64,000 bases of DNA from Octopus vulgaris. Its lineage: Eukaryota. The stretch covers positions 110,484,001 to 110,548,000 of the forward strand of contig OX597820.1 of NCBI GenBank assembly GCA_951406725.2, given 5' to 3'. Of the stretch, positions 35,822-56,863 are shown one piece after another; position 1 is the stretch's first letter, and each line of letters starts with the position of its first letter. The position numbers and the translations under genes were made by a program. The notes below the pieces were generated by a model that made no database searches, was not told where the DNA came from, and saw only the letters and a program-made list of their open reading frames with translations.

Positions 35822-38800
35822 CAAGGGTTGTATAAAACCATCAAAAGCTTGTTTATTTTTATGTTTTTGATTTATTATTAGTGTTGCTTAATATGTTTTA
35901 CTAAAATTGCTGTTTCTTTTCAGATATCATCAGAAAAAGGTAATTAAAATTCATTAAAAAGACAGATCTGTCAGACTTTCAAAGAGGTCAAATTGTTGGT
36001 GCTCGTATGGAAAGCACTAGCATAATGAAAACAGCCAAAATGTTTGGTGCATCAAGAAGTACTGTCTCGAAAGTAATGTGTTATGTGGACGCCCCCAGAC
36101 GATGAAGTAGGCTAGCCCAATATGTAGATATAGAGGGAGAAGCTTAGACGTCAGTAGCACCAAAGAGCAGAGTAAGAGAGTTGAGTAGAGGTCATCCGGA
36201 CCTGCAACATAACAGTGGCAATGAAGATTTTGTAGCTCATGCAGCCACTGTGTACACTGTGTAGTATTGCAATATAACAGTGGTTAATAAGGCTTGCGAA
36301 AGGTTTAAGCTGGAAGAATTAACACCAGATATGTTCAAGTGCCTAATATTCATTAAAGGGTTTGTGGCAACGGAAGATGCGGAAATTAGAAAAAGAATAT
36401 TATCAAAGTTGAATCAAGATGTGAAACTCACTTTGCAGAATGTGGCTGAGGAATGCCAACAAATAATAAACCTTCGAGATGATACAAGAAAGATAGAAGA
36501 CAAGAATAATAATATACAAATGTGTAAAGAAAGTACAGAAAGAAGATAAAATTTAAATTCAAAACGGTGCTATGGTTGCGGAGATCAACATTTGAGGAAA
36601 GATTGCTCCTTTAAAGATAAAACCTGTTTTAAGTATGGTAAAATTGGACATATACAGACAAAATGCCGGTCAAAGAAAATGGTAAAACAGAAGAAAGACA
36701 ACTCAACACCAAAATGCAATTAGATACTGGTTCAGATGTATCGATAATAAATACGGCAGCATGGAGTAAGATAGGCAAGCCATTGTATAAAAACACTACT
36801 AGGATAGCCTGTGGTGTGTCAGGGGAATGAGTTCAATTCTTGGGAGAAATTTCTCCAGAAATAAAACTTAAAAACAGGATGTGGAAATGTAAACTAATGG
36901 TATCTAAGAATACAATGAATCTGTTCGGGACAGATTTAATGGAAGGATTCAACCTGTGGGATCTATCACTGAATACATTATGTAACAAGGTGAATGTGTC
37001 ACAGTCCATGTTAGAGAAAGCATCGGAAAAAATGAAATTAAAACTGGAAAAGATGTACCCTGATATTTTTTCGAAAGAGCTCGGTATGTGTAAAAAAATT
37101 AAAGTAAAATTTGAGTTGAAAGAAAGTGCGGTACCAGTGTTCAAACCGAAAAGGAATGTACCTTTTGCGGCATTAAATCAAGTTGAGAAGGAATTAAAAA
37201 GATTGGAAGACATGGAAGTAATTGAAAAAGTAGACTACTCTGAGTGGGCGGCTCCTACCGTATATATAAAAAAGAAGAACAACGAAGTAAGAGTATGTGT
37301 GGACTTCTCAACTGGTCTTAATGATTGTTTAAAAAATTACAATTATCCGCTTCCAAACCCAGAAGAAATATTTGCTAAGCGCAATGGTGGGAAAAAATTT
37401 TCCAAGCTGGATTTGTCAGAGACCTACCTCCAATTACTGGTAGATGAAGAATGTGCTAAAGTATTAACAATCAATACTCATAAAGGTCTGAACCGTTTCA
37501 AAAGATTACCATTTGGGGTAAAGGTCACCCCAGCAATATTTCAGCAAGTAATGGATACTATGCTAGCAGATTGTGAGTTCGCGGTCTCATACTTGGATGA
37601 CATATTGATCAAAAGTGAATCAAGGGACCAACATATTGAACATATAGAAGAGGTTTTCAAACAAATATGTGAGTACGGGTTCAAAGTAAGGGAGGATAAA
37701 TGTGAATTTTTTCTTGACAAAAACAAAGTACTTAGGACAGGTGATCGATGAAAACGGATGAAAACCGGACCCATCTAGGATCGACGCGATAAAAAAAAAA
37801 TGCCTGCTCCCACTAACAAAACAACACTACAAGCATTCTTAGGTTTGGTAAGTTATTACCAGTTGTACATACTTAAAATGTATGAGCTAAGAGCTCCATT
37901 GAATCAGTTGCTAAAGAAGGACTCAAAATGGAGCTGGACAAACGAATGTCAGAAATCATTCGAGGAATTAAAAAGCGGTTAACATCAGAGTTATCATTAA
38001 CTCATTTTGACCCAAACCTGAAAATAATTGTGGCATCGGATGCCAGTGAATATGGTGAGCTGTGATTTTGCATAAATTTGATGATGGTAAAATCAAAGCT
38101 ATTGCACATGCACCGGGAGTTCTATTACCAGTGGAAAGAAACTACAGCCAGATTGAAAAAGAGGTGTTATCATTAATCTTCGCAGTAAAAAAATTCCATA
38201 AATTCTTACATGGGAGGAAGTTTACACTGCAAACGGATCACCGACTGTTATTGTCTATTTTTGGTTTGAAAAAGGGTATCTCAATGCACTCAGCAAACCG
38301 CTTACAGCACTGGGGGACTACTCTGTTGAACTACAATTTCCAGATGGAGTTTTTGCTATCAATGAAAATGGGACACGCAGATGGGTTGTCTAGGCTGATT
38401 CCAAAATATTAGGAACCTTTTGAAGACACAGTGATTGCATCGTTAAAACTAGAAATAGAACTGGAGAACATTTTGTGTAATGTAGTATGTGATTTGCTGG
38501 TAATGCTGGAAGAAATTAAATTGAAATCGAAAAATGATAGGTTCATAAATAAGATTTTTAAAATGTTTAGTAACACAAAAAATATAAATGAGCGGGACGC
38601 AGGTTCAAAGCACTATTCAGTATGTGATGAGGTATTATTATATGCACAAAAGACTTTCATGTAGGACATTCAGGGATTGTCCGGATGAAGAGCCTTATGA
38701 GAAGTTACGTTTATTGGCCGAATATGGAAAAGCAAATTGAGAGACTGGTAAAACAGTGTAGGGGATGCGCTATGGCAGCAAAGGCGCCCCCAGTGCAGAT

Positions 38801-40838
38801 TCAGCTGTGACCAAAAACGGATTTGGCATGGTCTAGACTTGATGTGGGTTTCGTAGGACCAATAAATTACTCTCATTATATGATTGTGGTGGATAGCTAT
38901 TCCAAATGGCCTGAAGTGTGTAAATGTTCAAGGTCAACCACAAGTGTGACTATTGACTTCTTGGAAGAACTGTTCACTTGTTATGGAGTCCCAGATACAA
39001 TTGTGTCAGATAATGATACACAATTTATGGCGAAGGAGTTTGAAAGATTCTGTAAGTCAGTTCAGATGAATCATGTGTTAACTCCGCCATACCATCCAAG
39101 GTCAAATGGGTTAGCGGAAAGATTCATCGACACATTCAAGAGAGCCTTAAGGAAGACCAGACAGGAAATCCTTGAAGATACAAATATGACAAAGTTTTTG
39201 CAGGTATATAGAATAACACCAAATCCAAATGCAGAGTCGGGTAGGTCACCCACAGATTTGATGTTTTCCAGAAAAAATTGTTCTATTTTTGACAAATGGT
39301 TGCCGAGTAGGAAACAGAAAATAGAAAATATGGGAAGAAAAACGAATTTTTTTAACACAGGTGACAAAGTGTATTTTAAAATATATAGTAATGGAAAACA
39401 GGACTGGGAAGAAGGAAATATAACTGGACGTCTGGGTAACGTGATGTACATGGTAAAAGGACCAAAATATGAACACAGAAGGCATTTAAACCAATAAAAA
39501 AAAAGACATACCAAAAACCAAGGGAGGCAAGAAGAACCAATGGATTTATGGTATGATTTGTTCCAGGTCCCAGAACCACAAGCAAAAGCAGAACCAACAT
39601 GTAGGTTGAACAAGAAGAGAAAACCTACAGAAATGATGGAAATTAACGCTAAGAGAAAAAGATATGCCAGTTTCTCACTGAAGAAATAAAATTGATAGAT
39701 TCAGGTTTAAAAAACTCAAAAGGGGGAGGTGTTGTGTGGACGCCCCAGACGATGAAGTAGGCTAGCCCAATACGTAGATATAGAGGGAGAAGCCTGGACA
39801 TCAGTAGCACAGAAGAGCAGAGTAAGAGAGTTGAGTAGCAGTCGGGAGTTGAGTGGAGGTCATCCGGACCTGCAACATAACATAATGACAGCTTTTGAGA
39901 AAGAGGAAAAACCTTCTCGCTGAAACAAAACTCCGGAAGACAACCAAAACTTTCACATAGGGACTGTCGGACTCTAACGTGAATTGTTAGAAAGGATCGC
40001 AAAAGTACAGCTCCTAAAATTACTGCACAGCTTAATGACCACTTTGAGAATCCAGTTTCCACAAAACTGTTTGCCGGGAGCTGCACAAAGCCAGATTTCA
40101 TGGGAGGGCTGCAATCAGAAAGCCACTACTTTCAAAAACAAACATTGCAGAGCATTTAGAGTGGAGAATAAAGCCTACAGAACTGGTCCCTAGAGATGTG
40201 GAAGAATGTTATTTTCTCAGATGAATCATCCTTTACCTTATTTCCGACCACTGGCTGAGTATATGTGTGGAGACAGCCAAAAGAAGCATTTGACCTAGAC
40301 TGCTTTCTTCCAACTGTTAAACATGGAGGATGATCTGGGAGAGCTATATCTTGGAAATCTGCTGGCCTAATGGTTTCCATTCATGGCAGAATTAATAGTG
40401 AAGACTATTTAAGCATTTTATCTGATCAAATCGATCCTATGGTTGCAAAACTGTTTCCGGAAGGAAACACAATCTTTCAGGATGATAATGCACCAATTCA
40501 CACAGCTAAAGTTGTTACTAATGGCATGAGGAACATTCTAGTGAAGTTGAACATCTTATCTGGCCACCACAGTCCCCAGATCTCAAAACTATTGAACATT
40601 TATGGTGCATTTTAGAAAAACAAGTAAGGAGTCGATATCCTCCGCCATCATCATTACAAGAACTGGAAACTGTTTTAGCCGAAGAATGGACAAAAATTCC
40701 TTTGGGAACAATTCAAACTTTGTACGTCCATACCTCATAGAATTTAAGCTGCATTTACTGCCAAAGGCGGTCCTACCCCATATTAGAATAAGTTTGTTTT
40801 AAATTTTAAGGTGTTTCCATTATTTTGTCCAACCCCTG
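35822..40838 (+). mobile_element. Tc1/mariner transposon, DD36E (Incomer-like), decayed, interrupted by Gypsy
   Basis: TA target duplication; TIR CA(A/G)GGGTTG(T/G)A(T/C)AAAA at both ends; DLSDFQRGQIVGAR, VIFSDES, FQDDNAPIH, WPPQSPDL.TIE. Confidence 0.9.
36079..39882 (+). mobile_element. Ty3/Gypsy LTR retrotransposon (Mag-like), decayed
   Basis: LTRs 36079-36214 and 39730-39882 (TGT..ACA); TSD TAATG at 36074 and 39883; PBS TGGCAATGAAGAT (decayed tRNA-Ser-like); PPT aaagggggagg; two CCHC knuckles, LDTGS, YLDD, SDAS/NYSQIEKE, integrase DSYSKW/VSDN/SNGLAER. Confidence 0.95.
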
Positions 40839-42328: not shown

Positions 42329-42711
42329 GAAATATGTTTCGAAAAGAAAATAGAAACTACACATGGAAAAGACATGGGGAAAGTAAGAAGAAAAATGTGT
42401 AAATGCAAATTGAATATCAAAAAAATAAAGGCATTTTTATGAAAAGTAGCGATAAATAAATACAATTAGATGAATTGTTAAAGAGATTCAAAGTCAAATC
42501 GGTATCATCATTGCTGTTCAAAAGCCAGTGAGCAGCATTTGCATTTTTGCATTTTTTTCTTACTTTAGCCATATTATCATTATTGTTTTTATGTATTTTT
42601 GTATTCTTATTCGTGTAACATCGTCTGTTTTTCCGTCCTTGTTTTGTATACATTCGAGGCTTTCTTCCAAGGAATCTAATGTGCTCGGCTTAGATTTTCC
42701 TTTGGGGCTGG

Positions 42712-42787
42712 CCAGATCGGAGCAATCTCAAGATTAATCAGCCGAAATTGCGAGGATGATCCAGTTCTTGACTGAAGATTGAAGGCT
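42712..42787 (+). ncRNA. Non-circularly permuted hammerhead candidate, family A copy 1
   Basis: GCAA-TC-TCAAGA (42722-33) ... GAAA-TTGC (42744-51) ... TCTTGA-CTGAAGA (42766-78); stems III and I perfectly complementary. Confidence 0.65.
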
Positions 42788-43139: not shown

Positions 43140-44396
43140 TATATAAATTAAATTAGAGATAAAACCACTATTAGGCAAATCAAACGGTGAAAGACATAAA
43201 CCAAAACATAGAAATAAAATTAATTAATATAATATACAAAATAAATAAAATATAAAATTTAAATTTTAAATTTTAAATTTATATTTATAAATTTTTATAT
43301 TTTTATATTTTTTGAATTTTAAATTTATAAACTTTTAATTTAATTTTTAAATTTTTTAATTAATTAATTTTTTTTTATATCAAAAAGTATTAAAAAGTTT
43401 AATATAATATAAGTAAAACCACTACGTACGTTTCATAGCCATAATTCAATGCAAATTACAATTAATTTAAATTCAATTAAAAATTCGAATTATAATTATA
43501 GTCAATCTTCAGGTTAATGATAATAGTTAAATAAATAAGCAAACAGATTTAAACAATATATTTTAAGAAATAGATAAAATAATAATTTTTCTTGTAAAAA
43601 GCTCTATTATCAAATTAGAAACTTAAACCATTAGGATTATGTCATACAACCCAATTATTATGTTAAATATTAATTTTTAAGGTAAAAAAATAGATAGAAA
43701 AATGTATTTATCTATTAAGATATAATATGGCTTTAAAAAACATAATAAACTCACAAATATCCTAAACTCATTTATAGTCAATATGTAATTACCAAATTAT
43801 TTAACAAAATAATCACTATTCATATTTTTAAATTTAAGTTCAAATCTAATAATTATAAAATATTTAAGAATAATAACTAAATTATTATCAATAAATATAA
43901 TAATTAAGATCTAAAATTTACTCTATCAATAAATATATAGACATATAATGAAAACTAAATAAATTAATTAGTCCATTATTACTTACGTAAATATTAAATA
44001 TTAATGTAATATTTTTATGAAATATATTAAAAAATTAAGGATGAAAAAGCAAATTATAAATGAAAAACCTATCTTAAAAGAACCGTATAACTATTTAACG
44101 TTCTATATATTTCGTTGGCTAAATAATAACTTACAAATAACATATAGTTATAATCTAATAATGAAATACATATCTTCAACAACTAAATAATTATACAATC
44201 AAATTAACAATCAGTAGTTATATAGTATCCAATATAATGCAATATAACATAAATTATTAAAATAACTTTAATAAAAAGGTTTACTTAGCTTTCAAAACTC
44301 GTGTCATTAACTAAATTTATAATAAACAGATGGAAAATTCTTTTAACAATGAAAACTACGAATATATTTTATCAATGAAAATTACTAATAAATATT

Positions 44397-44400
<4 letters not shown>
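43140..44400 (-). repeat. Extremely AT-rich Penelope-type UTR/terminal repeat remnant with hammerhead-like motif at 43419-43517
   Basis: Minus strand ac-CTGAAGA-(ttgactataatt...aattatggctat)-GAAA-CGTACG-TA-gt; flanked by (TA)n. Confidence 0.5.
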
Positions 44401-44433
<33 letters not shown>

Positions 44434-44435
44434 AT

Positions 44436-45115
44436 ACAGCAATGCTTGATCTGTAGAAAAAGCGTAGGTAGTAGCTCCATAAGATGCACCCAATGTAAGC
44501 TTTGAACACATTAAAGGTACAGCAATATCAGAGGAAAGCTAAGAAGGAAAATACCTTTTATATGTGGAAGATGCACAGGTACAAAAAACACTGAAATTGG
44601 GTAGAAAATAGACTCCATCAACTGCCAGGCAGGGAAGCTAGTGGCAGTAAATAGTTTCTGTTATCTAGGTGACCAAGTTAGTAGCAGAGTTGAATGCTCC
44701 AAGTGTGTACTCGTGAAAATTATATTAGGCTGGACAAAGTTTAGAGAGATCCTACCTCTACTCTCAGAGTGAAAGTCAAATTGTATGATGCTTGTTTGCA
44801 TACAGCTATGCTACATGGCAGTGAAACATGGGCTGTGATAGCTGAGGACATGTGTAGGCTTGAAAGAAATGAAGCCAGTATGCTTTGCTGGATGTGCAAT
44901 GTAAGTGTGCATGTTTGACAGAGTGTAAGCATCTTGAGAGAAAAATTACACACAAGGGGCATCAGATGTGATGTGCAAGAGAGACAACTGCACTGGTATG
45001 GTCATGTGATGCATATGGACAAGGACAGTTGTGTAAAGAAGTGCCAATCACTAACTGTGGAGAGAACCTGTGGTAGAGATAGACCCAGGAAGACATGGGA
45101 TGAGGTGGTGAAGAA
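44436..45115 (+). mobile_element. RTE LINE fragment with PHD-like finger before RT motif 7
   Basis: CLIC..CTQC...H..(Y)..CGRC, then VNSFCYLG, MLHGSETW, LHWYGHV, RPRKTW. Confidence 0.85.
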
Positions 45116-45176
45116 TGTGTGTGTGTGTATGTATGGAATCTAATGCGATTGGCTTAGATTTCCCTTGGCGGGCTGC

Positions 45177-45252
45177 CCAGATTGGAGCAATCTCAAGATT
45201 AATCAGCCGAAATTGCGAAGATGATCTGGTTCTTGACTGATGACTGAGAGCT
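45177..45252 (+). ncRNA. Non-circularly permuted hammerhead candidate, family A copy 2
   Basis: GCAA-TC-TCAAGA (45187-98), GAAA-TTGC (45209-16), TCTTGA-CTGATGA (45231-43); within a repeat 45135-45325 homologous to 42671-42860. Confidence 0.7.
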
Positions 45253-46504: not shown

Positions 46505-47253
46505 TATATATATACATACATATATGTGCATACATATATATGTGTATATATATATATATACATACAAAATAAGAAAATGGAGAAATACATCTAAATCAAT
46601 TATCAACTACCAGATAATACCCAATCACATACTTTATTAAACCACTACATATGAACATTAAGGTCAAACATAATAACATAGAACAAAACAGTGTACATGA
46701 AGGAGTAATATGATACAATAAGTACAATATGTATAAGAGAATATAAATAAATATAAATATAAATATAAACTACATCTTACAGCTGTTTCGGCCATGCAGA
46801 TATGGGTGTCTCATTTTACTTATATTAGCCATGTGCGATAGGTCAAAAGTATGTGATTGGGTACTATCTGGTAGTTGATAATTGACTTAGATGTATTTCT
46901 CCATTTTCTTATTTTGTATTATTAATTTGTGGTAAAACATTTTACCTTTGCCCATATAATACAGTAAATGAATTAATTGCATCGCAATTCTTAACATTTG
47001 TTGGGTACTTAACTTTGTTGGGTACTTCACTAGCAGTATATTGGATATATGTTATCCCATGGAGGGTTGCATTTACAACCCCTATCTCAATTTGTATATA
47101 CATACATATATATATATATGCATATATGGATACAGGTTGTCACAAAGTGTAAACAACATGAAATACAAAAATAACATGAAATACGAAGACAAACTTGGGT
47201 ATGCAAACAATGGGAGAAACAAATGGAAAACAAAGCAAGTAACATAAAGAACG

Positions 47254-47332
47254 ACCCTTCATCAGTTGTCAGCTGTCCATCAACTCCCCATTTCAAGCAA
47301 TTAATGACAATGTGAGGCTTTAAAAGGCAGTT
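47254..47332 (-). ncRNA. Non-circularly permuted hammerhead candidate, family B (cleavage-site U replaced by C)
   Basis: CCTCA-CA-TTGTC ... GCTT-GAAA-TGGGG ... GACAA-CTGATGA-A-GGGT. Confidence 0.55.
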
Positions 47333-47630
47333 GCTTCCGCGAGCCAAAATAAAATTTGGGATTTTGTGGAGAGTCAAAGTTGGTAATAAAAACAGGACTG
47401 TGGAGGCAGTAAATTTATAAACCAAATGAAAACAAACATGGAGGGCTATTAGGCCAGATGAGGTAAAGTAGCAAACACTGGAGGAATATTGTCTTTGACA
47501 AGAGAAAAGATAGAAGAGAAGGCAGATAAGAATGCGTCTGGTCTGTGAGACAGACTGAAAGATGATCATGTGAGGAACAGAAAGATGGACGATGATCATG
47601 TGTGAGCAAGAAAGAAAGTAAAGGAGATAG

Positions 47631-47684
<54 letters not shown>

Positions 47685-47964
47685 CGGTGAAGGGGAGAAA
47701 AAAGAATTAGAGAAAGGATGAGAGAGAAAAAAACAAAAGGGGAGAAGAGGAGGAAAAAGAATTAGAGAAAGGAATAGAGAGAAAATGAAAGGGGGAGAGA
47801 GAGAACAGTACAAGGTAGAGTCACATCAAAATTATTAAGATTAAATTTTCTTGGAAATAGATGGATGGCATTCAATCATATAATAATATATATAATATAT
47901 ATATAATATATATAATAATATATATATATATATAATATATATATAATAATAATATATATATATA

Positions 47965-48140
47965 TCATCATCATCATTGTTTAATGTCCGTTTTCCTTGC
48001 TAGCATGGGTTGGACGGTTCAAGCAGGGTCTGGAAAGCCAGGAGGCTGCACCAGGCTCCAGTCTGATCTAGCAGTGTTTCTACAGATGGATGCCCTTCCT
48101 AACGCCAACCACTCCATGAGTGTAGTGGGTGCTTTTTGCG
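47965..48140 (-). mobile_element. RTE-tailed SINE-like repeat, 3' part
   Basis: (CAT)n tail; minus-strand ggttggcgttaggaagggcatcc motif; homologous to 26346-26520. Confidence 0.7.
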
Positions 48141-48402
48141 TAAAAGGTCAATTTTCTAATAACTGTTTTTCTAAAAATAGAATGACTAAGTTTTTGAGTC
48201 AGTGGGAAAAAAAATCAAAACAAAAACAAAAACTGATCTAGCAGTGTTTCTACAGATGGATGCCCTTCCTAACGCCAACCACTCCATGAGTGTAGTGGGT
48301 GCTTTTTGCGTAAAAGGTCAATTTTCTAATAACTGTTTTTTTTAAAATAGAATGACTAAGTTTTTGAGTCAGTGGGAAAAAAAATCAAAACAAAAACAAA
48401 AA
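48063..48402. repeat. 170-bp tandem duplication
   Basis: 48063-48232 and 48233-48402 are nearly identical. Confidence 0.92.
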
Positions 48403-48872
48403 CAAAAAAGCATTTTTGTCTGTGGATTCAGACAATTCCTAGATTTTGTCTTAATTGACAAAAGTGTGAACAAAATCCTCATTTGGAGAAGTATGTTGTT
48501 GCAAATACAGTGGAAACAAAATTGTTGGTCATCATGTCTTAAGGATTAAATCTATATATTTAGAGTAATAAAGTTCTTGGTGAGCTTAGCGGAATAAAGT
48601 TATTTTTAAGACTTAAGTTTCATCCTGAAAAGTAAATTCAAATAATGTATGTATTTTTTTTCTTTGTTCCACCCTCTGAAGTTCCACTTTGCAATCACAG
48701 GATATGTGAGAAACCCTCATTTACAGGTGAGGGAGCATGCTCCAGAGCAGTGATCCCCAAACTTATAATATTTGCTCCCTCTTCACTCGTTGTATCAAAT
48801 GTTTTATAACCTTTTGTATCATATGTTTCAGATTATATAGCCCAGTAAAAAATATCATCATCATTATTATTA

Positions 48873-50871: not shown

Positions 50872-53800
50872 CCCTCCACCATTCAGATTACTCTGTCAAC
50901 TGCAATGCTTTTTATTCACATTGCTTTGAATCAACCATGCATCATCTCATAGCTTTGAGATTCTGATGATGTGATTGTTTATTCTTAGAAAGACATTATA
51001 GGCTAGGTGTGAGAGGGTAGATCTGACCAGTTTGAACATATAATGGAATGGAAGGTTTATGATACCTGTGGAGTATCTCCTTCTTCCATTATAATTATTT
51101 TTGTAGTTTCAAGGATCTGGAACACAAAGAAGAAGTTCACAAGTGGAGTACAGTTCAATAGCCGTTTATTCACAGAGTTCTCGTTTGTGTGGTTTGTTCT
51201 CACTGACCATCTTTATAGCAGCGTGTGATTTGTTTTAACTCCGTACACGTGAGGTTCATTATCTCTGGAGATAAGCATGTGGAGTCAGAGTGAGACAAGA
51301 GTCTGCTGTGAGCTGTTGGCTTTGCAGTGTTTCTCAGTGTTGAGCATGAGAGGAGTGAGAGAGTGAATGTCGGGGTTTCTTGCTTAAATACTGGTTGTCG
51401 GTGAGAATCTTGTTGTTGTCTCACACATGGCAAATGGTTGCAGGCGAGATCTTGTTCTTGTCTCACACATGGCAATAGCTACTGGCAAGATTTCATTCAA
51501 AATGGCGCTGGCTTCTTGTGTCTTGCTACAGGGTCTGCCCCCTGAGAATGTTAGTGTGTAAATAGAAAATAACTGGAGCAGGCACAAGAAAAGAGCAAAG
51601 ATGGTAACCAATCACAAACAACAAGATATGGTACAAAATGTGACAAGTCAAAAGAAAATAATTACAAGAAATATAAATGGGCATGCACAAAATTTTGACA
51701 AAATGTTCAATGGCAAAGCATTGGAAATGTTCAGCAACACAAGAAAGCAATTGTCTGTCACAGGAAACGCAAAAGAGGTTGTCAGATATAAATAGTTCTG
51801 GTGAGTTTTCTGGGCAATGCACAGTATGGCCTGTACTGGTTACATAAGGTTTGTTTGGTGTGGTCAAAGGTGCATGTGCAGGTGGATATGTAGGTGGTTG
51901 TAAAGAATCAAAAGTGGGCGTGGCTGGAGTGTCATCGAAGGGTGTGAAAACCTCAAAATGTGCCTTTTTAAGACTGTCGACTGACACGGTCTCTGCCCGA
52001 CCATTGATGTCGAGACTAAAAGTTTTGGGTGTGCACGATAGCATACAAAATGATCCTTTATAGGGAGAAATGAGCGATCCTCTGACAGAATCATCCTGAA
52101 CAAAAACATGAGTCCATTTGTCAATGTCTGGTGGGACATGAGAAGGAATAGATTGGTCACACAGATGTATGGATGGAAGACTCAAGAAATATGAGCAAAG
52201 TCTAGTGACATACGATGTTGGACCAGGATGTGATGAATTGTCTGGCACTAACATTGTACCAGGAAGTACCAGGGTGGTACCGTAAAGGAATTCGGTGGAG
52301 AAGAAACTGAAGTCTGTCTTAACAGTAGTGTGGCAACCAAGAACGATAGGCAGGAATTCTGTCCAAGACTGCAGATCAGGAGTGGCATGTAGAGTGGCCT
52401 TCTGTTGCCTGTAAAAACGTTCGACCATCCCATTGGAGGCTGGGTGGTAGCTGATCATACAAATGTGATGAACGCCTAGGATTCGTGATAATTCACGAAA
52501 TAAGGAAGTTTCGAACTGGTGCCCATGATCAGTGGTTATTTTAGCTGGGACACCAAAATGATTAATCCAGTTAGAAATGAAAGCTCGAGCAACTGACTCG
52601 GTGGAAATGTCCACTATTGGAATGGCCTCTGGCCAATGAGAGAAACAATCGACGCATGTCAATATGTAAGAGAAACCATGACTGACAGGCCATGGTCCAA
52701 CCAGATCAATGTGGACATGGCAAAGGCGAGTCTCTGGCAGAGAAAACTGTCCAAGAGGAGTGTGAATGTGCCTGTGGATTTTAGAATGCTGGCATTTCAC
52801 ACAAAAGCGTGCTCAAGCGGTGATCATCAAGTGCATATTAGGCCAGAAAAACCGAGCCGTAATTAAGCTTCACTGAGGCAGCAATGCCAGAATGTGACAT
52901 GAATGCAAGGCATCAAAAATGGAACACTGGTGGTACAAACGGTCTTGGAGAACCAGTAGCTGTGTCACAAAGGATTGTGCCTTCAGCAGATGGAAGTGGA
53001 AGATAGGCAAACTTGCAACAGGACAACTTGGTACAAGTTAGATCCAATGTGTCCATAGCTGGCTGATCCTGTGCAATGGCAGTTAAATTGATTGCAGCAG
53101 GAGATGAAAGAGAACACACAGGGAGATAAGAGAGTATGTCAGCAGGTACGTTCTCTGTTCCAAGTATATGCTGAATGTTACTCGTGAACTGGGAATAGTA
53201 GTCCAGGAGATGAAAAACATGAGGTGAGTGTTTGTCCGATTTACATGACAGAGCAAACATAAGAGGTTTGTGATAAGTATAAATCACAAAATCTCAGCCC
53301 TCAAGTTGATGTTGAAAATGACGAACCGACAGGTAGATTGTTTAGAGTTCATGATCAAACATAGTGTAACGACATTCAGCTGGCTTTAATTGATGAGAAA
53401 AAACATGCCAAAGGTCAAGCGTGGTTATCGATGGTATGTTGTAAAGCAACACCAACAGCAGAATCCCATGCATCAACTGTTAAAGAGAGACAAACATCAG
53501 GAACCGGATGTGCAAGCAAAGGAAAAGAAGCTATTTTTCTTCTTGGTTAGCTCAAAAGAAGATAATGCCTTGGCTGATAGAGTGATAGGAGAATTTTTTG
53601 ATTTATTTGCATTCAGTAGTTGAGTCAGGGGAGGTAACTTGTTTGCACATTTAAGTATGAATCTCCTGTAGAAGTTGACAATTCCCAAGAAGTGAGGCAG
53701 TTGACGTAAAGAAGTTGGAGGTGAGATGCATTGAATTGCATCGACTTTTGAGGAGAGAGGTCGGATACCATTAGAGTCAATATAATGAAGTAGGAATTCC

Positions 53801-56800
53801 AGAGAAAACACACTAATTGGGATTGATTTGCCCATTGTAGGTGTGAAGACACTGAAAAAGTTGAGATAAGTGTTAGAGGTGATATTTACGTGTGTCGCTA
53901 GCTATGAGCAAATCATCGACTAAGTGAAAAGTCCATGGACAACTTCGTCAATAAACCTCTGGAATGTGCTCATTGCATTCTGCAAACCGAAGCTCATAAA
54001 CAAGAACTCAAAACTTCCAAAAGGAGTGGTAACAGCAGTTTTGGGAATGTCATCAGGGTTCACTGGAATTTGATGATAAGCCCAGATGAGGTCAACCTTG
54101 GAAAAAATAGTACAACCACGCAAGTTTGAAGAAAAATCCTGGAGACTCCTTATCGAATAGCGATTGGGAACAGTGACTGCATTCAAATGTCTGTAATCCC
54201 CTACTGAATCGCCTTTTCATGCCAAATGTAGAGGAGATGCCCAAGGGCTGCTGGAGGGGCAAATAAGGCCAATTTGAAGCATATGCTCAAATTCAGATTG
54301 AGTCTTTTTGAGCCAATCAGGGGTGAGTTGCTGTGGATGTGAAAAGATGGGTGGTCCAGAAGTAGTAATATAATGGTGAGTCAAGTGTGTGACTTTGACT
54401 GATTTGAAAGTTGGATCTACCAGCTCTGGGAAAGGAGCCAAAAGGGAGTGAAACTGGTCACCAGCAGTGGCAACAAAAAACGACGGGCTGAAAACAGCAT
54501 TTGTAGTAACCGGAGCAGGCATAAACAAAGATGTAGAATCATCCACGAGTCTCTGTTGCCTGACATCTACTAACAAGTGACAGTGGTTTAAGAAGCCTGC
54601 CCCCAAAATGGGGTATGGTAGATCTGCTATAACAAAAACCAACCTAAAATCCTTTCAAAGGTTGAGATCTAGGTTTAATGAGACCTGACTAAGTTTTTAT
54701 CAGGGATAGATTTACCGTGTGCAGGTTAATGGCAGATTGCTTCGGCCTGTCTGAAATAAGACACAAAGGCCAAATAGAACAGCTAGATCCAGTGTCAACC
54801 ATGAATGATTCATTAGACACACAATCCTTAACAAAGAATGCATGATGAGATGAAAAATTTCAGGAAGAATTTGTCGTGCCCAAATCTTCCACAACTAGTT
54901 TCCTGACAGTTTGAACAAACAGGGCTGGATGCATCAATGGGCTTTGCCCTTAAATGTGGCATGGTACCAGCAGAGATTGGAAACTGTTGGAGTAGAACTA
55001 GACGACTGTGACTTAGAATGGCTTCTGCTGCGAGGACGATGAGAGCTGGCATATTGTTGCCACAGTGTGTCCATGCAATGTGTTAATGTATTGACTCTCT
55101 CCAAAATGTCGTCACGTGACAAGTTAGGAGACTTTGCAGTATTAGGGGAAGCTACTATAGGGTCCGAAGAAGTATGGTGAGGTGCAGGCTGCACAGTAAA
55201 CTCTATGATCTTGTACTTCATGGTGGCTATCTGATCAAGCGAATTGGAGTTGGCCATTGTGGTCAGTATCGATTGGACATTCGGTGGAAGATGAGAGAAT
55301 AACAATTTCCTCAGCAGAGGATTGTCCTCAAATGGAGTGATGCTGAGTTCTTGCAGATGACGAAGAAACTCAGATGGTGTCCTATCCCCCCACGTGTTCA
55401 TCCTGCATCAGTGTCCAGAATTTACTCTCTTTTACTCTCTGTGGATTGCGTGTTCCGATGGAGAACCTAGGATTTAACAGCTGCGTAATTCACATCCAGA
55501 TGTGGGTCAGTGATGAGATCTTTCACTGAGTGTGCAATAGGTGAAGGCATCCCACAGAAAAAGGTTTAGCTGCTGCTGGTGAGGCACAGCATGGGTGGAA
55601 AAATACGCATCCAATTGAGCAAACCAAAGTGCGATGTCACCAGGACATGCGAGTAAGCTGGGAAAACTACTTTTGTACAGAGGAAAGAAAAGAAAAGAAC
55701 CAAAGAACCGACAAAAGTGTTGTTGGAATAGTAACATGTATGCAAAAAAAAAATTACATAACAAAATTTTTGATTTTATTATTTTTTTTGTGTACTGTGA
55801 GCAGCAATGAAAATTTTTTTTTGTTTAGTCACCAAACTTGTGTTACAGTCCGCTGAAAAAAACATTATTTTTGTTTTTTTATTTAAGAAGGCATCAGAAA
55901 GTGGCGGGCGAACTGGTCATTTTCTGTCTCAACACATGAGGCATCCAAACATGGTAGTAGACGGGAACAATGACTGGAAGTTGATGGCTAGCTTGCTTGA
56001 AGTGTCCTCCTGTTGTTGTATTTGGTGTATTTACTGGTATCAAGCGTTGACCATCAATATTGCAGGAGAAATTACTCCAAAAGGAGATTATTTGAAAGAA
56101 TACCATGTATTTCCATGTAAGAAGAATGCATTCACTTCTAGTTACAAGTTCAAGGCAAAGAACGTGAATTTTAAAAGTTCACTTGAATGAGAGAAGATAT
56201 CCTGACGTTGGTCCATTGATTTTTTAGTTGAGAATGCGAGCAAAGACTGCCATTCTGCAGTTTGGGTGAGGTGCCTACAACAATAAAGCTTTCAGTTGCT
56301 GAAAATCTTTGGGGGGGGGGGGTCACCATTTTATAATGGAATGGAAGGTTTATGATACCTGTGGAGTATCTCCTTCTTCCATTATAATTATTTTTGTAGT
56401 TTCAAGGATCTGGAACACGAAGAAGTTCACAAGTGGAGTACAGTTCAATAGCCATTTATTCACAGAGTTCTCGTTCGTGTGGTTTGCTCTCACTGACCAT
56501 CTTTATAGCAGCGTGTGATTTGTTTTAACTCCGTACACGTGAGGTTCATTATCTCTGGAGATAAGCATGTGGAGTCAGAGTGAGACAAGAGTCTGCTGTG
56601 AGCTGTTGGCTTTGCAGTGTTTCTCAGTGTTGAGCATGAGAGGAGTGAGAGAGTGAATGTCGGGGTTTCTTGCTTAAATACTGGTTGTCGGTGAGAATCT
56701 TGTTGTTGTCTCACACATGGCAAATGGTTGCAGGCGAGATCTTGTTCTTGTCTCACACATGGCAATAGCTACTGGCAAGATTTCATTCAAAATGGCGCTG

Positions 56801-56863
56801 GCTTCTTGTGCCTCGCTACAAACATAAAACATATAGCATATGGCTATTTTAAATGCTAAAGTG
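50872..56863. mobile_element. TTAA-flanked (piggyBac-type) MITE split by the Gypsy element
   Basis: TTAA-CCCTccacCATT at left and aATGctaaaGtG-TTAA at right; ~200 bp once the LTR element is removed. Confidence 0.6.
51039..56820 (-). mobile_element. Ty3/Gypsy LTR retrotransposon, CsRn1-like, full length but decayed
   Basis: LTRs 51039-51530 and 56332-56820; 4-bp TSD AACA; PBS TGGTGACCCC (tRNA-Trp); gag CWYH..C..PC (CHCC) motif; LVDTGS; KTAVTTPFG; integrase HIDLVGP/TTD.G.QF/YHPASNGMVER. Confidence 0.95.

Follow-up and report, generated by a model that had tools for sequence, protein, structure and literature searches.

The minus strand of a 64,000-nt stretch of the Octopus vulgaris genome (contig OX597820.1, positions 110,484,001 to 110,548,000; hereafter the window) carries the core words of a hammerhead ribozyme around 47254..47336, in the order cleavage site, GAAA and CUGAUGA. 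Does this short repeat fold as a hammerhead, how is its chain wired, and can the copy in the window still act? The order site-GAAA-CUGANGA has been described as the type SGC (HRIMA-1) hammerhead, for which cleavage was demonstrated (Eckert et al. 2023, PMC10085705). A sequence-only reading of the window had proposed a hammerhead in this permuted order, with stems I and III that covary between two repeat families. The proposal was borne out, although the order had already been published and two features had been missed, namely a predicted opening of the chain inside the catalytic core and a link to the Naiad group of Penelope-like elements (PLEs). Most probably, the site is the dead remnant of a retrozyme-like repeat of Penelope-like, most likely Naiad, origin that does not code for protein, and its family carries an SGC-type hammerhead opened between A9 and N10.1. 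The four-helix fold is very probably real and under selection, and intact copies, judged by their bases, can be expected with some confidence to cleave.

The site in the window and its repeat family

The motif begins at 47336, four nucleotides beyond the interval 47254..47332 to which it had first been assigned, and the words quoted by the sequence-only reading stand where it had placed them. Read 5' to 3' on the minus strand, the motif consists of the 5' strand of stem II, where the ribozyme starts (N10.1-N10.6, 47331..47336); the 5' strand of a fourth helix, P4, which bridges stems I and II (47326..47330); the stem III strand that ends at position 16.1 (47312..47317); the six nucleotides of stem I that follow the site (47305..47310); a UUAA linker between stems I and II (47301..47304); the 3' strand of stem II (N11.6-N11.1, 47295..47300); GAAA (G12-A15.1, 47294-47291) together with the second stem III strand (47286..47294); the 3' strand of P4 with one bulged A (47273..47278); the stem I strand 5' of the core (47266..47271); and CUGAUGA (C3-A9, 47259..47265), with which the ribozyme would terminate if wired as proposed. 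The site dinucleotide occupies 47312-47311 and reads CA in this copy, and hammerhead numbering predicts the scissile bond between H17 (47311) and N1.1 (47310). An imperfect outer helix that had been noted in the same place corresponds to P4, in which CUGCC pairs with GGACAG.

The site belongs to a dispersed repeat, family B, whose unit of about 760 nt (minus strand, 47120..47878) lies between (TA)n tracts, with no open reading frame (ORF) seen in it. A search of the octopus's own 2.8-Gb genome gave 1891 first-look candidates, of which 40 were scored and 30 retrieved; the 39 scored copies other than the window itself showed identities of 85-89%. In the consensus of the 30 copies the site reads UA and stem III contains UGAGG, as had been predicted (UA or UC, and UGAGG), and the refuting condition set beforehand, a consensus lacking UH, did not hold. 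U16.1 is present in 28 copies and A17 in all 30, and the complete set of core bases is kept in 21 copies. The window copy is an exception: among 18 genome-wide matches to a degenerate 32-mer, it alone has C at 16.1 (the other 17 have U) and A in the linker. Its bases at 10.1 and 11.1 are A and U, respectively, while the consensus has G at 10.1 and 25 of the 30 copies have C at 11.1; this pair is G-C in 19 copies and A-U only in the window copy. Given C at 16.1, the window copy is most likely dead, as had been suspected.

The palindrome AUUAAU, previously put forward as common to two families and as a possible driver of dimers, is not a consensus feature. The linker dinucleotide of family B is CG in 14 copies, CA in 9, TG in 6 and a gap in 1, and AUUAAU in the window copy is a product of CpG decay, its first A pairing in stem I. 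Only the UUAA linker recurs (families A and F), and it is absent from families C, D and E. At one locus (L024) family B forms a partial tandem with cores about 750 nt apart. The motif keeps a position near the 3' end of its unit: the distance from the site to the 3' microsatellite is 163-223 nt in 27 of 30 family B loci and 143-155 nt in 19 of 20 family A loci. In a random 200-kb sample, family B was represented by two decayed loci, and cores of A, C, D and E were absent; these numbers are too small to derive a density.

Six families with the same four helices

Six families in this genome (A to F) have the same four helices, each built from different sequences. The elements follow one another as stem II 5' strand, P4, stem III with the UH site and stem I, a short linker, stem II 3' strand with GAAA and stem III, the P4 partner, and stem I with CUGANGA. 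Site and GAAA are separated by 16 nt in families A and B, and GAAA and CUGA by 25 nt in one and 24 nt in the other, as had been counted before; in the other families these spacings are 13-16 nt and 23-27 nt. The core bases CUGANGA, GAAA and UH are intact in the representatives of A1, A2, C, D, E and F, and stems I, II and III abut this core and covary across families. The description of the first two families as unrelated holds at the level of BLAST, where only low-complexity or very short matches are shared in the portion of the output displayed, but layout, tandem habit and (TA)n ends are common to the families.

Two further copies of the four-helix layout lie on the plus strand of the window. 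The family A1 copy (45171..45243) has intact core bases and a predicted cut at 45192/45193, and the family A2 copy (42706..42778) has A instead of U at N7. This is the sole free core position, and the two subfamilies leave all other core bases unchanged. A canonical type I reading through a GAAA downstream of the A1 core was considered and rejected: A2 has GAAU there, and no matching stem I was seen. Family A units are 720-820 nt long and occur as tandem and inverted copies; A1 copies are 98-99% identical, and a 30-mer spanning site to stem III gave 2188 exact matches in the genome. One tandem (L187, C1:79499421-79502343) holds five units with a period of about 723 nt and more than 99% identity, each with one intact motif, and one motif per non-coding unit is also found at three further multi-unit loci (L046, L047 and L050). 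Families D, E and F, of which one copy each was seen, were found by a layout descriptor in flanking DNA (L022:1960-2045, L144 and L107:2975-3060).

Pairing was counted in 16 of the 30 family B copies (the window and 15 plus-strand loci). Helix cells were paired in 92.3% of cases, compared with 27-53% in slid controls, and stem I reached 96.8%. Each P4 position is paired in 26-30 of the 30 copies, and a P4 duplex forms in seven of seven representatives with energies of -5.7 to -12.9 kcal/mol. In Rfam, the four loci tested gave no gathering-level match, and the 150 matches listed of 456 for the window were microsatellite look-alikes only, none of them a hammerhead of types I-III.

Wiring of stem II and its alternatives

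The sequence-only reading had paired stem II as GCUU with GGGU, the latter part of the stretch directly after the core (A plus GGGU, minus strand, 47254..47258). This pairing is not shared by the families and represents the weaker of two partners. Upstream of the site, stem II finds GAGCAA/UUGCUC in family B, GGCUG/CAGCC in family A and GACACC/GGUGUC in family C. This upstream helix has five of five Watson-Crick pairs in all six families (A1, B, C, D, E and F) and always opens with G10.1-C11.1; across the families, a single column shows as many as four types of pair. Non-cognate strands form a mean of 2.0 pairs and a maximum of 5, the latter between the related families D and E, and the chance of such a partner was estimated at about 0.4-0.9% per family. 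Families A, B and C were found without the use of stem II and are independent for this helix. In seven of seven representatives no downstream duplex reaches the stability of the upstream one (-6.9 kcal/mol upstream vs -5.4 kcal/mol downstream in the family B copy L006), and in A1, A2, C and F only one or two contiguous pairs form with the strand after CUGANGA.

Because the conserved partner of stem II lies upstream of the site and not after CUGAUGA, the motif as read from its sequence runs from N10.1 to A9, and its chain is open between A9 and N10.1, inside the catalytic core. The arrangement can be read as a type SGC circle that was closed and then cut at A9/N10.1; P4 would then correspond to the helix between stems I and II that has been published for this type. 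In the scheme of Eckert et al. (PMC10085705), CUGANGA and the adjoining strands of stems I and II (block C) are taken as inseparable. The six permutations of that scheme rest on three such unbreakable blocks, and the proposed layout breaks one of them. The circular block order of types I-III is not found in the motif; the order and the stem I-II helix of type SGC are present, and a stem II strand directly after CUGANGA is not. On these grounds the motif is classed as hammerhead-like, outside types I-III and not strictly SGC, with a known order and a new wiring.

Several observations speak against this fold and wiring. Pseudoknot-free minimum free energy (MFE) folding, which cannot represent pseudoknots, misses the proposed fold and does no better than with shuffles (z -0.8 to +1.4). 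The descriptor with which families D, E and F were found demands stem II, and these families are not independent for that helix. Within family B, changes on both sides of a helix mostly reflect CpG decay and kinship and were given little weight. At position 15.4 (A in 19 copies, U in 8, G in 2 and C in 1), nearly all eight copies with U have a U-U mismatch in stem III. Furthermore, families B, D and E, the only ones to share a G-run after the core, can form four to five contiguous, mostly wobble pairs with it.

The last point would suit an ordinary type SGC hammerhead, in which the G-run, set off from CUGAUGA by one bulged base, forms stem II, and the strand upstream of the site serves as an off-switch or folding intermediate. 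PLE hammerheads have such a bulge between 9 and 10.1 (PMC4209133); each of the four downstream pairs is kept in 28-30 of the 30 family B copies, and SGC RNAs are proven to cleave (PMC10085705). Nevertheless, this alternative is judged unlikely. It leaves A1, young and amplifying, without a downstream G-run to pair with, as it does A2, C and F, and by eye no downstream pairs are found at the Naiad ends of Acropora, Morbakka, Pomphorhynchus, Beroe and an entry in part 19 of the Naiad supplement; G10.1 is always supplied by the upstream strand.

A second alternative, held to be just as improbable, would make the motif a hammerhead-derived protein-binding or priming signal for a Penelope-like reverse transcriptase (RT), with little, no or protein-assisted self-cleavage. 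A lizard PLE hammerhead cut only together with the protein of the element, and insertion in vitro did not depend on this ribozyme (PMC11167929), metazoan PLE mini-hammerheads cleave poorly (PMC4209133), and a backbone break may cripple the core. However, the catalytic positions, a non-G H17 and G10.1-C11.1 are constant in all families while the stems turn over, which would otherwise be hard to explain and favors selection on catalysis. Chance complementarity in a repeat-rich genome, spread by transposition, is largely refuted and very improbable: the helices are short, the MFE z-scores non-significant and the copies in one family not independent, but the layout descriptor gave no match in Markov shuffles of 3.84 Mb and 5.0 Mb (8.8 Mb in all) or in 875,236 reversed real bases, and different stems recur in six families and several phyla at a fixed place near the element 3' end. 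A single AT-rich match of the descriptor to genuine sequence (L083) is probably spurious.

A probable link to Naiad elements

The layout with its proposed opening at A9/N10.1 leads from the octopus repeats to Naiads, PLEs that target (TA)n and were reported without canonical hammerheads (Craig et al. 2021, PMC8557442). In the annotation of that study, some Naiads are flagged with 'HHR_core' or 'HHR_half_core', sequences to which none of the descriptors applied. The published consensi were scored by eye, not computed, at those CUGANGA matches that no line break interrupted. In this way the split-core layout was recognized at the ends of 9 of 54 consensi, which represent four to five phyla: Beroe, three Acropora, Morbakka-2, Pomphorhynchus, two Octopus and the part-19 entry, which is probably Darwinula-4, a name assigned by file order only. 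Five of the 54, all from nematodes, have the form of type CSG; in the rest neither form was recognized, and some of them have CUGANGA in other arrangements. The apparent lack of hammerheads in Naiads would then be explained by descriptors that presumed the wrong wiring.

Further arrangements were noticed among the Naiad ends. Several nematode CSG-type 3' ends have a helix flanking the core; the published examples of CSG are limited to two sequences from metagenomes. At arthropod ends (supplement S5, parts 16-19, of PMC8557442), CUGANGA follows a C-run and is flanked by a long helix. One arthropod entry in part 16 has the site and GAAA upstream, with a local hairpin where stem II would be expected, and is perhaps a further variant.

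Within the octopus genome, the 3' motif of the published Octopus Naiads is matched by family C, with 273 exact genome matches (control 0). In 11 of 25 loci the family C motif words come after the end of the RT. One locus (L158) shows an endonuclease (EN) match, RT motifs and a decayed motif in this order, that is, EN before RT; the EN match (iE 1.4e-11) was obtained with a profile built from the other PLEs of this genome. Family C is thereby linked to an EN-RT ORF. Insertion into (TA)n, 5' truncation and partial tandem and inverted copies were also observed, all of which are found in other PLE clades too and hence are not diagnostic.

The Naiad connection has its own difficulties. In Pfam, the RT of family C does not reach the cut-off (E 1.3e-5), none of six further fragments gave a Pfam RT match, and an RT profile from a Neptune-like element of this genome gave no match. 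No ORF was seen upstream of the motif in 30 family B or 20 family A loci, so that the Naiad origin of families A and B is inferred by analogy. Moreover, the Naiads of this genome are old and broken whereas A1 copies are 98-99% identical, and the helper enzyme of A1 is a postulated one.

A young Neptune-like Penelope element was encountered at three loci (L184, L185 and L186). Its copies are 97-99% identical and have an intact 781-aa RT-EN ORF with a C-terminal GIY-YIG domain and an upstream ORF of 378-479 aa; the terminal repeat carries an ordinary mini-hammerhead variant that lacks C3. This element is a candidate helper for the young non-coding families. The possibility that A, B or D form part of it was rejected, as no same-strand A, B or D sequence was present beside 30 GIY-YIG loci or in five longer loci.

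Proposed mechanism

Intact copies would use standard hammerhead chemistry and cut directly after H17. Two such cuts in a tandem transcript would free one unit, as was proposed for retrozymes (bioRxiv 10.64898/2026.07.22.740005), or they would set the ends of the RNA of a full element; a Penelope-like RT and endonuclease would then copy the released unit into (TA)n. The active form could be a monomer or a strand-swapped dimer of two tandem copies, and the two are considered equally plausible. In the dimer, each P4-stem III hairpin would offer its loop to the two tails of the other copy. In hammerhead geometry stem III points away from the core, on the side opposite to the far ends of stems I and II. 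P4 would cap these far ends, yet both of its strands tie it to stem III, and in a monomer P4 and its linkers would need to span from the ends of stems I and II to stem III. In an Acropora Naiad inspected by eye, a P4 of about 10 bp is joined on one strand without a linker to a 12-bp stem III, an arrangement that a monomer could not easily close. Two copies that swap tails would close the ring at any helix lengths, and tandem repeats would provide the second copy. The proposed break at A9/N10.1 coincides with the position at which PLE hammerheads normally have a bulged nucleotide (PMC4209133) and at which the CChMVd viroid hammerhead tolerates one (PMC3705267). The metal site of the hammerhead is formed by the phosphate of A9 and by G10.1, and the invariant G10.1 fits this site.

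A more far-reaching picture combines an active natural hammerhead without a covalent A9-N10.1 link, as the fourth opening of the reverse-order circle, that works as a strand-swapped dimer and hence would restrict cutting to tandem transcripts, with reverse-order hammerheads (including CSG in nematodes) as an old, standard feature of Naiads across phyla and of their passengers, at thousands per genome. This joint claim is tentative and falls somewhat short of an even chance. Non-circularly permuted ribozymes would move from a rarity of metatranscriptomes to thousands of copies in animal genomes. The A1 motif, at 73 nt young, intact and in high copy number, makes cleavage, the choice between monomer and dimer, and a role in PLE transposition directly testable.

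Other features of the window

Two broken long terminal repeat (LTR) retrotransposons with RT- and integrase-like ORF pieces occupy 36078-39882 and 51039-56820. Their terminal repeats are 83% and 98% identical, respectively, and we take both elements to be Ty3/Gypsy-like from their motifs. A LINE-like fragment at 44400-45120, which presumably resembles the 3' part of an RTE-type LINE RT, directly precedes the family A1 copy and is itself preceded by a very AT-rich stretch of 1.2 kb (43140-44400) without a long frame under the invertebrate mitochondrial code. At 48063-48403, two head-to-tail copies of 170 nt, 98% identical, represent a common dispersed repeat.

Comparison with known systems

In the literature searched, which comprised sources outside subscription journals and the article of Eckert et al. 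apart from its supplements, no account was found of hammerheads with a non-circular order from animals or Naiads, nor of a break between A9 and N10.1; a paper of November 2026 cites only 'alternative permutations' in the text available (PMC13725137), and Forgia et al. 2023 (PMC10162972) gave no occurrence of the terms looked for. The nearest relatives are types SGC and CSG (PMC10085705), which share with the octopus motif a non-circular order, a short stem I-II linker, a helix on the other sides and a similar size. A helix joining stems I and II is described for type SGC in that work. Unlike SGC, the octopus motif has a stem II strand at its 5' end, an interrupted block C and both P4-stem III links closed. 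The survey of RefSeq, as described in the main article, assigned neither SGC nor CSG to the genome of any known organism, and a bacterial GCS candidate was the only RNA located in one, whereas thousands of copies are present here in an animal genome.

Like Naiads (PMC8557442), the repeats insert into (TA)n and occur as 5'-truncated, partially tandem and inverted copies, and family C, at locus L158, has EN before RT. In contrast to the Naiad report, as far as its text goes, the ends are predicted to fold as complete reverse-order hammerheads, and A and B copies were seen without an ORF. PLE type I mini-hammerheads (PMC4209133) and non-LTR retrozymes (bioRxiv 10.64898/2026.07.22.740005) resemble the octopus families in having one ribozyme per tandem non-coding unit, a PLE-type end nearby, a weak point at 9/10.1 and possible action as a dimer. 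Those ribozymes, according to the accounts given there, are of circular-order type I with a tiny palindromic stem III, whereas the octopus motif has full stems of 4-6 bp, a fourth helix and the reverse order.
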